Virus record (IMG/VR): IMGVR_UViG_2728369553_000011
Reading direction: 5' to 3' (one strand)
Source: a virus
Lineage: Duplodnaviria; Heunggongvirae; Uroviricota; Caudoviricetes
Length of the DNA: 13,332 nucleotides
Part shown: positions 2,781-5,588 of the stretch, in pieces
Layout: the number at the start of each line of letters is the position of its first letter
How positions within the stretch are numbered: position 1 is the stretch's first letter
Program-made: the position numbers and the translations under genes
Notes under the pieces: generated by a model
What the model was told of the DNA's origin: nothing
Database searches by the model: none
What the model saw: the letters and a program-made list of their open reading frames with translations, nothing else

Positions 2781-3549
2781 TTACTTCGCAATTCCTGGCT
2801 GGACGACATTCGGACGCCAGCTCTCCCAGTTAAAATTCACCCATCGCCCGCCGTTCATGGTCATGCGATCCATAATCCTCTCGCCGAGCAATGTTTTCAT
2901 GGCCTCATAATTCAGGTTTGTCAGCATCCCCACGCTGCGCATCGACGCTGTCCGGCGATCAACAATCTGGTGCAGCACCACCTGCTCGTTTTTTGTCTCG
3001 CGCTGAATGCCAATTTCATCAAGAACCAGCAGATCCACTTGGCACAGTTCCCGCAAAAATTTTTCGCCTGATTGCCCGTCGTCATAGCTGGCGTGTAGGG
3101 CACTCATGACATCAGCCACGGTAACCACAATCACTGTCTGGCCATCTTTCAGCAGGCGATTCCCGATAGCCGCCGCCAGATGGTTTTTTCCGGTACCAGG
3201 TTTTCCGCTGAACGCAAAATTTGTACACCCGGTCATCAGTTCATCAGCGATGGATTTCGCCTGACTCAACGCGTATCGCTGCCCTTCGTTCTGCACCTGG
3301 TAANNNNNNNNNNNNNNNNNNNNNNNNNNNNNNNNNNNCGAAAACGAGCATTTGCGGTGCAATGGCTGGATGCCAGAGCGATTCAGAATTTTTTCCACCC
3401 GCAACTGACGATTCTGACGGTTGATCTCCTCACAACGTTTCTGGCCTTCGGAAAGTTGCCACTCGCGCCACTCCGCTACCGTTTTGAATGGGGCGGTTAC
3501 ATGTGGCGGGGCCAGTCTGCGGATACGTTCAAGAATGCCNNNNNNNNNN
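2781..3549 (-). CDS. ydaV: DnaC/IstB-like AAA+ helicase loader (phage P-like replication protein), interrupted by N-masked gaps; true start falls in or next to the 10-N run
   Basis: Walker [18 protein letters not shown] and Walker B LLVLDEIG. Frame stays open in the same phase on both sides of the 35-N run. Length from the 10-N run to the stop is about 252-256 aa, close to the recalled 248-aa YdaV. Stop TAA at 2781-2783. Confidence 0.75.
3304..3338. other. Run of 35 N (masked or unsequenced bases) inside the DnaC-like gene
   Basis: Literal N characters. The frame is open and in phase on both sides. Confidence 0.99.
3540..3549. other. Run of 10 N at the ydaU-like stop / ydaV-like start junction
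   Basis: Literal N characters directly next to the TAA of the ydaU-like gene (3550-3552). Confidence 0.99.
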
Positions 3550-4338
3550 TTACCCCCTGAAGCCTGGCGGGATCGCACTATCCGGTAACGAGACGGTGTT
3601 AACCTGTCGGAGTAACGTCTCAGGTCGAACACCTTTTGGCGCGAACAAGCCCTGGTATTCATTGGCGATGCTGTGTCGAATCACCTGCTCAGGTGAAAAA
3701 CCCTGCTGGCGGAATTTTTCCAGCTCCCGTATCGCCCCGTTAGCGCCCTGCTCCGTTCGAATCGGTTTTCGCAATGCCTGCCTGAACTGAACCCACTCAT
3801 GCCAGAGTGTTTCCGGCAACCAGTCAGGCAGCTCGATAGCCTCCGGTTCGAATTTTTTAGACGCTCGTTTTTGGCGAGGGGGATTTAGGGGGAGATAAGT
3901 ATTTATATCTTCCTCTTTCTCTTCCTCTGGTAACGCTTTTTGATCCGTTTTTGTAACGCTGGCAGCGTTACCTTTTCGTTTCAGTTCTCGTATTTTTGTT
4001 ACTCTCTCGTTTGTAACCGCCCGTTTTTTAGAGCTTTTCCCGTTATGGCGCTCAAAGTTAGGAAGCGACAACACACCATTAGTTTCGACCAGCCATCCAA
4101 CCTGAATTAACGCATCAGCAAAACCAGCCATAAAAGTGATGCGATCTATTGCACTTTTTGTAACGCCGCGAGCGTTACACTCTGCGTTACCGTCTATCAT
4201 TTGTTGATCCGCCCATGCCCAGAAGCGAATGACTTTCCCTAATGCGGCATCTGGATCAATATTCAGAATCTCAGCAAGCCTGAATATTTCCGGCTTATCC
4301 GGCGTAATAACTTCGAGCTTTATCCAGTTTGAAGCCAT
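3550..4338 (-). CDS. ydaU: YdaU-like replication initiation / replisome organiser protein (lambda O analogue by position), 262 aa
   Basis: ATG at 4338 with AAGGTGA Shine-Dalgarno 6 nt upstream; stop TAA at 3550-3552. Acidic/basic linker (EEEKEEDINTYLPLNPPRQKRASKK). Sits between the cII-like ydaT and the DnaC-like loader. Contains palindromic repeats in its coding sequence. Confidence 0.7.
   Translation of the reverse strand: MASNWIKLEVITPDKPEIFRLAEILNIDPDAALGKVIRFWAWADQQMIDGNAECNARGVTKSAIDRITFMAGFADALIQVGWLVETNGVLSLPNFERHNGKSSKKRAVTNERVTKIRELKRKGNAASVTKTDQKALPEEEKEEDINTYLPLNPPRQKRASKKFEPEAIELPDWLPETLWHEWVQFRQALRKPIRTEQGANGAIRELEKFRQQGFSPEQVIRHSIANEYQGLFAPKGVRPETLLRQVNTVSLPDSAIPPGFRG
3953..3971. 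repeat. 19-bp palindrome GTAACGCT-GGC-AGCGTTAC, copy 1, inside the ydaU-like coding sequence
   Basis: Perfect 8-bp inverted arms read directly. Flanked by a GGTAACGCT half-site (3929-3937) and CGTTTTTGTAAC-like direct repeats up to about 4030. Confidence 0.75.
4160..4178. repeat. 19-bp palindrome GTAACGCC-GCG-AGCGTTAC, copy 2 (one arm mismatch), inside the ydaU-like coding sequence; extra GCGTTAC half-site at 4184-4190
   Basis: Read directly from sequence. Confidence 0.7.
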
Positions 4339-4351
4339 TTGTTTTCACCTT

Positions 4352-4370
4352 GTAACGCTCGCAGCGTTAC
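4352..4370. repeat. 19-bp palindrome GTAACGCT-CGC-AGCGTTAC, copy 3, non-coding, immediately upstream of the ydaU-like Shine-Dalgarno and ATG
   Basis: Read directly from sequence. On the - strand it reads GTAACGCTGCGAGCGTTAC followed directly by AAGGTGAAAACAAATG. Confidence 0.75.
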
Positions 4371-4380
4371 ATTTAACTGA

Positions 4381-4402
4381 TACCGAACAAAACAGTTCGG
4401 TA
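4381..4402 (-). promoter_or_regulatory. Hairpin (TACCGAAC / GTTCGGTA, 6-nt loop) in the ydaT to ydaU-like spacer; possible attenuator or processing site
   Basis: Perfect 8-bp stem seen in sequence. Only a modest T content follows on the - strand. Confidence 0.3.
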
Positions 4403-4415
4403 CGATTAATTTCAA

Positions 4416-4838
4416 TCAATGCACTACGACAGAATCGCTAGGAGAACCGCCGCCGCTGAAATGTGCTTTACGGTAAACGGCCTGGACTGCATCATCATGC
4501 GCATCAATTGCCGTACTCAGTGCATCCTGTGCCGCCAGTAATGCACGGCGTTCCAGGGTATCGAAGATGCAGAGTCGGTGACGCAGCTCGCGAGGAAGAA
4601 TTGCCAGAACCGCAGGGATCAGTTTCTGAATTTTTTCCCTTTGCGCATTCGTTTCACCTTTCAACCAACGATGATAGATATTCTGCTGATTGTTCCAGTC
4701 CTTGCCTGGTACCAGGGGCAATTCGCCGCCCCCCTGGCGCAGATATTCTTCAGTAATTGCGTTAGCGACCCACGCCTGCCCTTTTTCGGCTGCCAGGGCT
4801 AACAACACTGATTCGATGTGCTCATGCTTGATTTTCAT
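4416..4838 (-). CDS. ydaT: YdaT, CII-like regulator/toxic protein of the Rac immunity region, 140 aa
   Basis: 140-aa ORF MKIKHEHIESVLLALAAEKGQAWV... Its ATG (4838-4836) overlaps the ydaS TGA (ATGA-type coupling). Length and sequence match recalled K-12 YdaT. Confidence 0.8.
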   Translation of the reverse strand: MKIKHEHIESVLLALAAEKGQAWVANAITEEYLRQGGGELPLVPGKDWNNQQNIYHRWLKGETNAQREKIQKLIPAVLAILPRELRHRLCIFDTLERRALLAAQDALSTAIDAHDDAVQAVYRKAHFSGGGSPSDSVVVH

Positions 4839-5089
4839 GAATCAACTCCCATCAGCTTTTTCGTAGTAGTTTTATTTCTGCCAATAGTTAAAATTGCATC
4901 GGCAGAAAATAATCCGTTTGATGCATGAGCGATTTTTTCAGCGTAATTTGTTTCGCCGGTATATTCTGTGCGAGGCAATTTTCCGTTATCCATCCATTTG
5001 TAGATTGCTCTTTGGCTGACACCACAAACGTCGGCCACAACAGAAACGCGAACAGTTTTGATTACATCTTCAAGTGTTTTCTGGTTCAT
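4835..5089 (-). CDS. ydaS: YdaS, Cro-like XRE-family HTH protein (84 aa from ATG 5089; the ORF is open up to ATG 5161)
   Basis: HTH segment VADVCGVSQRAIYKWMDNGKLP. ATG 5089 is preceded by GAGGA 4 nt upstream. Divergent from racR. Start choice is uncertain. Confidence 0.75.
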   Translation of the reverse strand: MNQKTLEDVIKTVRVSVVADVCGVSQRAIYKWMDNGKLPRTEYTGETNYAEKIAHASNGLFSADAILTIGRNKTTTKKLMGVDS

Positions 5090-5168: not shown

Positions 5169-5588
5169 ATGGTTCATGAAGATAAAGCGCGTAAAGAGTT
5201 CGCCAGTAGGCTTGCGCTAGCCTGTGAAAACGCTGGTTATGAACAACATGGAAGGCAGGCAGAAATTGCCCGTCGAATGAAATTAACACCAAAAGCGGTT
5301 AGCAAATGGTTTAATGGTGAAACAATTCCTCGCCGAGAGAAATTAAGGGAATTAGCAACACTCATTGGAACAACACCAACCTATCTTTTGGGAGAGGATA
5401 CAGAAGAAAGTGGACAGATACGTTTCTATCAGGAGTTAAATCCAAGACAAAAAATCATCATTGACCTTCTGGACGAGCTCCCTGACAGTGAGACAGATGA
5501 ACTTTTAAAAACTCTTGAGGAGAAAAAACAGAAGTACAATGCAATTTACGAAGAGTTAGCACGAAAGAAAAAACAAAAAGCCTCTTAA
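5169..5588 (+). CDS. racR: RacR, CI-like prophage repressor (139 aa as read here)
   Basis: ORF MVHEDKARKEFASRLALACENAGYEQHGRQAEIARRMKLTPKAVSKWFNGE with an HTH segment. Divergent to ydaS/ydaT. No Shine-Dalgarno upstream, and a -10-like TATCAT ends 7 nt before the ATG. Confidence 0.8.
   Translation: MVHEDKARKEFASRLALACENAGYEQHGRQAEIARRMKLTPKAVSKWFNGETIPRREKLRELATLIGTTPTYLLGEDTEESGQIRFYQELNPRQKIIIDLLDELPDSETDELLKTLEEKKQKYNAIYEELARKKKQKAS

Follow-up and report, generated by a model that had tools for sequence, protein, structure and literature searches.

We propose that three perfect 19-bp palindromes, found in and just upstream of a phage replication-initiator gene, are recognition sites for the encoded protein, and that with an adjacent purine tract they probably form a replication origin inside that gene. 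The best reading of the sequence is an initiator-bound origin of the lambda/SPP1 kind, in what appears to be a new variant. The window analysed here comprises 13,332 nucleotides of a Caudoviricetes virus record (IMGVR_UViG_2728369553_000011). A first-pass annotation of it had suggested a lambda-like origin of initiator-binding repeats in the initiator gene, and this part of its interpretation stands; its alternative assignment of the sites to YdaT or RacR, its label "ydaU-like" and its T-tract iterons do not. The features of the locus are as follows.

2797–3543, minus strand: ydaV, DnaC-like helicase-loader gene (Pfam IstB_IS21 and Bac_DnaA ATPase domain; PHROG 50, "DnaC-like helicase loader")
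3550–4338, minus strand: replication-initiator gene, 262 amino acids (PHROG 2509, "replication initiation protein", E-value=4.7e-88)
3878–3892: C-run pair, CCCCC-TAAAT-CCCCC on the gene strand (GGGGG-ATTTA-GGGGG on the plus strand), downstream flank of the putative origin
3893–3907: A/T-rich stretch, TATAAATACTTATCT on the gene strand, immediately following the purine tract and part of the low-stability DNA
3908–3928, minus strand (sense strand of the gene): purine tract AGAGGAAGAGAAAGAGGAAGA, a degenerate (GAAGA)n as read directly; candidate DNA-unwinding or strand-opening element
3930–3936: terminal half-site R2, GCGTTAC on the gene strand, an exact heptamer starting 23 nt past the right arm of site B, with a single C between it and the purine tract
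3953–3971: site B, GTAACGC-TGGCA-GCGTTAC, perfect palindrome at gene nt 368–386 (codons 123–129), linker-coding
4160–4178: site A, GTAACGC-CGCGA-GCGTTAC, perfect palindrome at gene nt 161–179, coding for the N-domain
4184–4190: extra left half-site of site A, GTAACGC on the gene strand, exact heptamer at gene nt 149–155
4352–4370: site U, GTAACGC-TCGCA-GCGTTAC, perfect palindrome, non-coding, abutting the Shine-Dalgarno sequence

The initiator aligned over its full length with the PHROG 2509 profile (residues 1–262 on positions 1–277 of 277), and its C-terminal half matched phrog_678, "replication initiation O-like". No Pfam family was found for the whole protein at E-values up to 0.01, or for its C-terminal part at E-values up to 0.1; since the N-domain has no Pfam match at all, it also has none to Phage_rep_O, which we take to be the Pfam model of the lambda O family. 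The protein is predicted to consist of a winged-helix-like N-domain (approximately residues 1–120), a disordered linker and an O-like C-terminal domain. Its AlphaFold model has helices and a beta-hairpin at residues 84–91 (pLDDT 72), and pLDDT falls below 50 at residues 123–144, the part encoded by the half-site array; site A falls in a low-confidence loop of the model, residues 50–56. Homology of the N-domain stops at about residue 120 and that of the C-domain begins at about residue 139, while site B and R2 occupy codons 123–137. Fold-level hits of the N-domain were weak, yet consistently to winged-helix, replisome-organiser or DUF1376 proteins; those from Foldseek included "replisome organizer" proteins and a Phage replisome organiser N-terminal domain protein. 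Kinship of the N-domain to DUF1376 was rejected for want of a sequence signal: the K-12-type protein of phage 683R6 has a DUF1376 match (E-value=8.7e-26) and the window protein has none, and hhalign gave a probability of 0.2% for the two N-domains. The gene is ydaU-like by position only.

The gene order (racR-like, cro-like, ydaT, initiator, ydaV, DUF1627, DUF977, with recE, recT, ralR, kilR and sieB near the module) is that of Rac-type synteny. The ydaV gene, whose coordinates were taken from the RefSeq annotation of an identical locus, lies directly downstream of the initiator gene, and the initiator/loader module is shared with phage vB_EcoS-673R7. There are no DnaA boxes near the region, which is neutral since the proposed origin model uses none. 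Only two plasmid records carry this initiator; one of them is the circular genome of a temperate phage with an integrase, and is thus not independent proof of autonomous replication. A hairpin at 4381–4402 was rejected as an intrinsic terminator on the gene strand, there being no T-run after it and the scan reporting the plus strand only.

Perfect GTAACGC-N5-GCGTTAC palindromes number three in the window against 0.01 expected, as the first-pass annotation had claimed, and none of 200 shuffles reached three; no further copies with up to two mismatches were found in the window. The heptamer GTAACGC occurs 10 times (1.45 expected), with eight of these falling in 3930–4370. In vB_EcoS-673R7 (37.8 kb), whose initiator protein is 100% identical, the whole genome holds only these three palindromes, and 8 of its 12 heptamers are at the initiator locus. 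Two of the half-sites reported earlier (3930–3936 and 4184–4190) are exact heptamers. The third, at 4012–4019, is merely GTAAC(C) and codes for a conserved R-A-V/L-T peptide; because the bases used for this peptide differ in relatives (CTTAC, TTGAC), the half-site is no element of the DNA as such. Direct repeats of the CGTTTTTGTAAC type are weak (74–79% identity) and not conserved as such, and the T-tract "iterons" gave way to GTAACG / CGTTAC half-sites as the conserved repeats. The period of these half-sites is 11–12 nt in the family and 23 nt here; two T5 runs, at 3937–3941 and 3948–3952, lie 11 nt apart.

Both in-gene palindromes share a frame and encode N-A-x-x-V-T-K (C54-N-A-R-G-V-T-K61 and G123-N-A-A-S-V-T-K130), as had been noted; the third is indeed non-coding, lying 14–32 nt 5' of the ATG and abutting AAGGTGA. 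Site A is solitary and lies 207 nt upstream of site B in the direction of the gene. The extra half-site at 4184–4190, 12 nt before site A, occupies the site A position of relatives: the window protein carries a four-residue insertion (ECNA) relative to these, which has shifted its palindrome by 12 nt. This half-site is less conserved than the site A palindrome.

Comparison of approximately 200 distinct related loci, with G+C contents of 39–65%, revealed a recurring layout: a solitary palindrome early in the initiator gene, a half-site array some 200–290 nt downstream in linker-coding DNA, and then the purine tract. It is common to a large unnamed family of phage initiators. Site A is present in every cluster examined, SPN1S-type relatives having their own solitary palindrome at another codon position (nt 66), and site B lies at gene nt ~345–392 in essentially all relatives. 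The latter is read in frame 1 (GNAxxVT) in most relatives and in frame 0 (VTPxAL) in TL-2011b and L164; frame 2 is forbidden by a TAA, so only two frames are ever available to the sites. The arrays comprise 1–5 left and 1–3 right half-sites, mostly 2–3 left and two right, with a left-to-left spacing of 12 nt in 42 of 47 and a right-to-right spacing of 11, 12 or 23 nt (11–12 nt in most clusters, 23 nt in the Rac-type group). A junction of the form [half-site]-C(C/T)-AGAG... recurs across loci, and its sequence changes with the half-site type.

The palindrome arms are conserved as DNA: they are kept where codon choice is free, in either of two reading frames, and outside coding sequence as well. 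Among 35 clusters sharing less than 85% identity, the site A codons NGT, AAC and GTT were each present in 35/35 although the residues vary, the pattern being NGT-AAC-GCx...GTT with Gly/Cys/Ser and Ser/Gly/Arg/Cys/Thr; background codon use is 33% for GTT, 65% for AAC and 24% for GCT. In sites A and B, 25 of the 28 arm positions are invariant (100% of sequences), and the spacers vary. Site U was found with up to two mismatches in 63 of 68 distinct Rac-type loci, again with freely varying spacers, and is the sole conserved block in upstream non-coding regions that otherwise cannot be aligned. The earlier suggestion of conservation at the DNA level was thus upheld among the relatives. Members of the family outside the enterobacteria lack site U, but sites A and B, within the gene, occur throughout.

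The sequence of the half-site switches with the clade of the N-domain, while the layout and the tract stay. Other clades possess GTCCGC-N7-GCGGAC (SPN1S type), GTCACGC-N5-GCGTGAC, GTAGACG-N6-CGTCTAC, GTTGCGC-N5-GCGCAAC or GTCACA-N7-TGTGAC; in the GTCACGC type His (CAC) replaces Asn, and the Val codon has gone from GTT to GTG to match, a synonymous change. The palindromes occur whether the C-domain is of the DnaT or the O type, and alongside regulators that carry other annotations, and are absent from K-12-type YdaU with its DUF1376 N-domain, despite a C-terminal part 80.6% identical to residues 139–262 of the window protein. The sites track the initiator N-domain, and not the neighbouring genes, through very different phage backgrounds. 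From the comparison of the window with the K-12 type, N-domain and origin repeats appear to be exchanged as one cassette.

The purine tract begins one or two bases after the last half-site, on the sense strand, in phages of hosts from Vibrio to Xanthomonas. The exact sequence AGAGAAGAGAAGAGAAGA was present in 31 of 55 clusters, and with three or fewer mismatches in 41 of 55. The tract is read in all three frames, its arginine codon is AGA in 100 of 101 cases against a background of 7%, and it is conserved at the DNA level in genomes of 39–65% G+C. In the window, the duplex free energy of the 40-mer at the tract is -45.3 kcal/mol, where the mean is -55.3 (sd 3.7), which places the 40-mer in the top 0.2% for low stability within the 3.2 kb examined. 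The least stable 40-mer of the approximately 3.4-kb locus starts at the tract in 21 of 35 clusters, and the tract is within the top 2% of windows for low stability in 28 of 35. Low-stability DNA, namely the purine tract and the TATAAATA stretch, therefore lies beside the repeats, and relatives have TAAA-rich sequence where the window has the stretch at 3893–3907. In 12 of 48 clusters a C-run pair follows the tract by no more than 70 nt and occurs nowhere else in those genes; CCCCC-TAAAT-CCCCC is also present at the corresponding place of the K-12-type YdaU gene. The tract, the most conserved part of the element, lies just outside the interval of the first-pass annotation (3929–4370). Since it also encodes a conserved acidic/basic peptide and always supplies AGA-AGA in frame, the tract may act in translation or through the protein.

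From these features we infer a sequence of binding, tract unwinding, loader recruitment and looping, with possible autoregulation. Dimers of the winged-helix-like N-terminal domain would bind each GTAACGC-N5-GCGTTAC with one arm per subunit, which fits the freedom of the 5-bp spacer to vary. The core origin would comprise site B and the terminal half-site R2, within DNA coding for the disordered linker, and strands would open at the purine tract and A/T-rich stretch (3893–3928), the least stable duplex. The O-like C-terminal domain would then recruit the DnaC-like loader, with host DnaB, onto the opened DNA. Sites A and U, some 200 and 400 bp off, are predicted to be auxiliary, looping or wrapping the DNA into a complex of higher order; site U, set against the ribosome-binding site, may be an auxiliary origin site and/or an autoregulatory one through which the initiator feeds back on its own expression. 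Against this model we count that the full sites are about 200 bp apart, not packed as in lambda, and that the window core is one palindrome and one half-site with a tract that is degenerate relative to the family consensus.

A bolder extension, that all members of a hitherto undescribed class of phage origin open, or are primed, at the (GAAGA)n tract, is put forward tentatively, and we think it rather unlikely. In that case the clade-specific half-sites would merely place the initiator beside the tract. In one version, a purine-rich transcript would form an RNA:DNA hybrid (R-loop) of unusual stability, opening or priming the origin as a bacterial equivalent of a polypurine-tract primer, and would give "transcriptional activation" of the origin a physical basis. 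In another, the initiator or the loader would land on the tract as single-stranded DNA, in a sequence-specific manner.

Perhaps the palindromes are nothing but autoregulatory operators, at which an initiator dimer represses its own synthesis, and the true origin is elsewhere. The sites are palindromic and hence of the dimer type, and site U, 14 nt from the ATG, adjoins the Shine-Dalgarno sequence and is phylogenetically footprinted. Rep dimers of iteron plasmids are autorepressors at inverted repeats of their own gene. These Rep proteins bind DNA as dimers and are active in replication as monomers (PMC4980987). However, most of the family lacks site U while sites A and B are universal, and a consensus scan found no sigma-70-like promoter upstream of the gene on its strand. 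Operators would also leave unexplained the 11–12 nt array, its fixed junction with a conserved tract and the match with the least stable DNA. We regard this explanation as improbable; autoregulation could nonetheless be one more task of site U within the origin model. Still less probable is a role in RNA, in which the palindromes would be hairpins of a polycistronic mRNA affecting processing, stability or translation, and the rare AGA-AGA pair in the tract would throttle translation of the initiator. Every palindrome would form a hairpin in the mRNA too, and the intergenic RNA folds as two hairpins, the second being site U before the Shine-Dalgarno sequence (MFE -28.7 kcal/mol, z -3.3). In relatives, nested L1-L2/R1-R2 arrays could pair into long hairpins, and by sequence logic a 5-nt repeat guarantees an in-frame AGA-AGA whatever the frame. 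Yet the stems do not vary inside a clade and are the same at every site of a locus, with no site-by-site compensatory drift, arrays of three left and two right or one left and three right half-sites are not hairpin-symmetric, a switch of DNA-binding domain brings a switch of half-site sequence, and no Rfam match was obtained.

We give very little credence to two further explanations. If the DNA likeness were the by-product of a G-N-A-x-x-V-T-K peptide needed twice, the common frame of both in-gene copies and the retention of the motif in most relatives would be accounted for, but not the synonymous positions of GTT, AAC and NGT, which are fixed though the residues change, nor the non-coding third copy, nor the V-T-P-x-A-L translation of site B in other lineages. 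A peptide-level repeat was accordingly rejected on codon statistics and frame change. Equally hard to credit is an array bound by some other immunity-region regulator, either YdaT (CII-like) or RacR, as had been suggested at first; its one recommendation is proximity, ydaT ending 77 bp upstream of the initiator gene. The box footprinted with YdaT homologues is (T/A)TGATT-N6-AATCAA (PMC9986795, PMC11879457). A perfect box of this type (TTGATT-CATGAA-AATCAA) is located at 4828–4845, over the ydaT start codon, with a 10/12 copy at 4402–4419, but neither resembles GTAACGC. As to RacR, the palindromes are kept in TL-2011b and in Xanthomonas and Ralstonia phages with differently annotated regulators. 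They persist in phages with no YdaT or RacR homologue annotated beside the initiator, and they co-vary with the initiator N-domain.

The proposed origin resembles that of lambda in its setting. The lambda origin, comprising iterons and an AT-rich tract, is located in the middle of gene O (PMC7466680). In both, the origin lies inside the initiator gene, between the parts coding for the DNA-binding N-domain and the loader-binding C-domain; dyad-symmetric repeats of about 19 bp, bound by the initiator (a prediction for the window), adjoin a low-stability tract; and, downstream of the cro and cII analogues within the early rightward operon, the initiator gene is followed by the helicase-loader gene (PMC7466680). 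The C-terminal half of the window protein is, moreover, related to O-like proteins. Unlike lambda, the N-domain is not of the O type, the loader is DnaC-like and not P-like, and the opening element is a sense-strand purine repeat and not merely an AT-rich tract. The core has one full palindrome with flanking half-sites as against four to six packed iterons; the lambdoid arrangement of at least four packed ~19-bp iterons is absent, the other palindromes being 207 and 399 nt away, and one or two extra full sites lie ~200 and ~400 bp upstream.

In phage SPP1, oriL (AB boxes and an AT-rich unwinding element) is embedded in gene 38, and the organiser G38P, which has no AAA+ domain, binds two discrete separated regions (PMC5737612). 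The window likewise has repeats and an adjoining low-stability element within the initiator's own gene, and the N-domain model gives weak Foldseek hits to organisers. It differs in that its protein shows no membership at the sequence level (no Pfam hit), its host range is Gram-negative, its other sites are only ~200–400 bp off and not genome-distant, and its repeats are arrays of palindromic half-sites. A syntenic counterpart is YdaU/YdaV of the K-12 Rac prophage, which shares the order racR-like, cro-like, ydaT, initiator, ydaV and the C-terminal part mentioned above (80.6% identity), but differs completely in N-domain and in repeat sequence. The K-12-type gene possesses its own repeats, (A/G)TGTTCAAACA in three to four copies, and an A-rich tract at the equivalent place. 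Since the N-domain of the window protein lacks DUF1376, the window element is oriJ-like by position and not the same origin; the position of oriJ at sequence level was not found in the open literature text searched.

Iteron plasmids (F RepE, pSC101 RepA, R6K pi) provide a further parallel in the possible dual use for initiation and autoregulation and in looping between separated site clusters (PMC4980987). They also combine a winged-helix initiator with a half-site present as both inverted and direct repeats beside an unwinding element. Bacterial oriC contains a DnaA box, a GC cluster and trinucleotide repeats (the DnaA-trio). Here too a short one-strand repeat starts after the last initiator box, with one or two G/C pairs between. 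Plasmid Rep proteins are reported to bind the AT-rich unwinding region strand-specifically (PMC4081077). The family tract differs from the DnaA-trio in its period of 5 nt as against 3 and its all-purine composition, in an initiator that has no AAA+ domain, and in that tract binding is only proposed.

In the literature searched we found no described origin for this initiator family, which also has no Pfam model, nothing usable on its origins or its purine tract, and no published binding, unwinding or replication assay for the window initiator or any family member. The present analysis offers a sequence-level prediction of the origin of a Rac-type replicon, which could serve in annotating origins in prophages, in designing mini-replicons and in reading the in-situ replication of prophages. 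Covariation of half-site and N-domain would amount to a natural specificity code, open to swaps of domains and sites. Conservation of the tract as DNA across 39–65% G+C is unusual and points to a common mechanism of opening. The initiator family comprises 6,390 representatives at 50% identity, and a 2.1-kb stretch over the module matches DNA in 2,222 of 5,426 complete E. coli genomes; in 450 of these the match covers 80% or more of the stretch.

The window is an E. coli prophage of Rac type. Several E. coli chromosomes are 100% identical to a 2.1-kb stretch around the palindromes at 3953–4370, and the initiator protein has 100% identity to that of phage vB_EcoS-673R7. The gene order is as follows.

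5169–5588, racR-like repressor gene, divergent from the minus-strand genes
4835–5089, minus strand, cro-like gene
4416–4838, minus strand, ydaT (CII-like) gene
3550–4338, minus strand, initiator gene (262 aa)
2797–3543, minus strand, ydaV, DnaC-like loader gene (RefSeq start position)
After ydaV, minus strand, genes for DUF1627 and DUF977 proteins

A mechanically called loader ORF (2781–3662) overlaps the initiator gene by 113 nt, its start at 3662 preceding the initiator stop (3550). RefSeq places the ydaV start at the equivalent of 3543, just past that stop codon, and use of the longer ORF is improbable.

The first-pass annotation had named the initiator gene ydaU-like. Its product has no Pfam match and is therefore not a DUF1376 YdaU; the K-12-type YdaU of phage 683R6 does match DUF1376, and profile comparison revealed no similarity between the N-domains of the two proteins. 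Instead, the full length matches PHROG 2509 "replication initiation protein" (E 4.7e-88), with O-like and primosomal PHROGs as further matches of the C-terminal half. TBLASTN analysis showed a mosaic protein: residues 1–145 recur beside other C-domains (DnaT-type in TL-2011b, SPN1S and VW-6S) and residues 139–262 beside other N-domains, the latter with 80.6% identity to K-12-type YdaU and ~35% to a Gifsy-2 protein that carries the annotation lambda gpO homologue. The AlphaFold model of residues 1–144 (mean pLDDT 72) contains four helices and a beta-hairpin at 84–91, with low confidence at residues 50–56 and 123–144. The N-domain family is a large one, of 6,390 representatives (50% identity; E up to 1e-3).

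The palindrome GTAACGC-N5-GCGTTAC occurs, as claimed, in three perfect copies, at 3953–3971 (site B), 4160–4178 (site A) and 4352–4370 (site U), far above the chance expectation of 0.01; none of 200 shuffles gave three. Of the window's ten GTAACGC heptamers, eight lie between 3930 and 4370, and the 37.8-kb vB_EcoS-673R7 genome holds no palindromes beyond these three. The two in-gene copies do encode N-A-x-x-V-T-K in the same frame, and site U is indeed non-coding and adjoins the Shine-Dalgarno sequence. Among the other repeats proposed, the half-sites at 3930–3936 and 4184–4190 are exact, whereas that at 4012–4019 reads only GTAAC(C) in DNA not conserved in relatives, and the CGTTTTTGTAAC direct repeats are weak. 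Codons 53–56 (4179–4190; residues E-C-N-A) are a 12-nt insertion in the window's group that other family members lack. The left arm is thereby duplicated, giving site A an L-L/R layout (L and R, left and right half-sites) with 12-nt spacing, resembling the arrays at B and, for some relatives, at U.

Alignment of relatives bore out the suggestion of conservation at the DNA level, with the synonymous positions of sites A and B fixed, and points to selection acting on the DNA of the sites. Among 68 distinct Rac-type loci (65–100% identity), sites A and B were essentially always present and site U was found in 63; the arms were nearly invariant and the 5-nt spacers free to vary. Upstream regions were unalignable except for one conserved block, which is site U. 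In 72 further distinct loci (G+C 39 to 64%) the in-gene sites again lay at gene nt ~149 and ~344–392, and site U was missing. Codons were examined in 35 clusters below 85% identity. Site A was NGT-AAC-GCx-xxx-xxx-GTT in all of them, NGT (35/35) encoding Gly, Cys or Ser, with AAC in 35/35 (background 65%), GCT in 31/35 (24%) and GTT in 35/35 (33%). Site B had the same codon pattern; its peptide is V-T-P-x-A-L in TL-2011b and locus L164 and G-N-A-x-x-V-T elsewhere. The third frame is impossible, since GTAACGC there would contain a TAA stop.

A half-site array, typically GTAACG-N6-GTAACGC-N5-GCGTTAC-N5-CGTTAC, occupies the linker-coding region (gene nt ~340–440) family-wide. L half-sites are spaced at 12 nt in 42 of 47 cases, and R half-sites at 11 nt (n=25), 12 nt (n=3) or 23 nt (n=9), the last being the Rac-type group, window included. 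One or two bases past the last half-site begins a purine tract, present as the exact 18-mer AGAGAAGAGAAGAGAAGA in 31 of 55 clusters, or 41 allowing 3 mismatches. It is translated in all three frames among relatives, and its Arg codons are AGA in 100 of 101 cases against a 7% background. By nearest-neighbour energies over a ~3.4-kb locus, the tract marks the start of the least stable 40-mer in 21 of 35 clusters; it ranks in the top 2% of windows for instability in 28/35 and in the top 0.2% here. The gene strand of the window reads as follows.

3908–3928, purine tract, a degenerate 21-nt purine run
3893–3907, TATAAATACTTATCT, directly after the purine tract
3878–3892, CCCCC-TAAAT-CCCCC (GGGGG-ATTTA-GGGGG on the plus strand), just downstream of the predicted origin

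A C-run pair follows the purine tract within 70 nt in 12 of 48 clusters, often with a G-run after it; the remainder of those genes has no such pair. The linker regions of loci L085, L164 and L119 contain three or four GTAACG copies at 12 nt, and gene nt 340–430 of L228 contain six GCGGAC-like half-sites at ~11 nt. Translation of such expanded arrays gives G-N-x-x peptide repeats, so that origin DNA shapes linker sequence.

In lambda the origin lies within the initiator gene, its repeats adjoining an unwinding element (PMC7466680), and SPP1 oriL has the same arrangement inside gene 38 (PMC5737612). Because the anatomy fits this known principle, we read 3893–3971 as the predicted core origin. 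Of the lambda-like or oriJ-like origin first proposed, the layout of repeats and tract inside the initiator gene fits, but "oriJ-like" holds by position only. Sites A and U would be auxiliary initiator sites, ~200 and ~400 bp from the core. All of the family has a solitary site 200–290 nt ahead of the array, an arrangement suggestive of looping or wrapping. Site U, which only the Rac-type group possesses, may have a further role in autoregulation. We infer the steps of binding, opening, loader recruitment and looping. A literature search found no description of this origin, its tract or the initiator family; the dispersed palindromes, nested half-site array and conserved sense-strand purine repeat are new here.

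The palindromes track the N-domain. In TL-2011b and ZX5, where the N-domain is ~65% identical and the C-domain and neighbours differ, the same palindrome lies at gene nt 149 and again at nt 358; it is absent from the K-12-type YdaU gene although the C-domain is shared. More distant N-domain clades keep the layout (early solitary palindrome, array, junction half-site-CC-AGAGAAGAG) with different half-sites.

Half-sites of further N-domain clades
SPN1S group: GTCCGC-N7-GCGGAC, solitary site at nt 66, another codon position
Further clade: GTCACGC-N5-GCGTGAC
Further clade: GTAGACG-N6-CGTCTAC
Further clade: GTTGCGC-N5-GCGCAAC
Further clade: GTCACA-N7-TGTGAC

In the GTCACGC clade the left arm changes Asn to His (CAC) and the right arm changes synonymously, Val GTT to GTG, in match. 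Recognition of the half-sites by the N-domain, together with a general function of the tract, would be expected to give such a pattern. Repeats of a different sequence, (A/G)TGTTCAAACA, occur in the K-12-type gene with an A-rich tract, and the C-run element is found there in the same place as in the window; thus N-domain and repeats appear to have been exchanged as one cassette. In ydaU of phage 683R6 (locus L005, 1870–1976, linker-coding region) these repeats lie at 1909 and 1943, with an inverted copy at 1966, weaker ones at 1872 and 1953 and the A-rich tract after the set, a candidate sequence of oriJ-type origins. The C-run element is at 2032–2055 there, with GGGGG behind it; in the window, this element (3878–3892) marks where homology to the K-12-type gene starts.

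Autoregulation alone leaves the array-plus-tract junction and the absence of site U from most of the family unexplained. The palindromes might possibly form RNA hairpins, a reading that explains neither the identical arms at all sites, nor the asymmetric arrays, nor the way in which the half-sites covary with the DNA-binding domain. The purine tract may have a translational role; it yields an in-frame AGA-AGA pair whatever the frame.

YdaT had also been proposed to bind the palindromes. Its homologues footprint on (T/A)TGATT-N6-AATCAA, located in K-12 Rac over the start of ydaT and in CP-933P at the ydaS end (PMC11879457, PMC9986795). A perfect box, TTGATT-CATGAA-AATCAA, lies at 4828–4845 on the minus strand, overlapping the ydaT start codon (ATG 4838–4836); it is the site footprinted in K-12 Rac. 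A second repeat, ACGATT-AATTTC-AATCAA (4402–4419; 10/12 consensus positions), overlaps the ydaT stop codon ~410 bp away, just upstream of the initiator gene. Neither resembles the GTAACGC palindromes, and YdaT was rejected as their binder; the boxes bracket ydaT, and a YdaT tetramer could bridge them. A promoter search upstream of the initiator gene was negative, no Rfam family matched, and no DnaA box lay near the palindromes. Between ydaT and site U, an inverted repeat with an 8-bp stem (4381–4402; TACCGAAC-N6-GTTCGGTA) folds stably as a hairpin in gene-strand RNA (z -3.3 jointly with the site U hairpin), with no T-run behind it, and is retained in close relatives only.

NC_015459.1 (loci L252 and L253), a 41-kb "plasmid" from Pusillimonas sp. 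T7-7 in PLSDB, is the circular genome of a temperate siphovirus with integrase, terminase, capsid and tail genes, and carries the initiator, a loader, site A, array and purine tract, complete.
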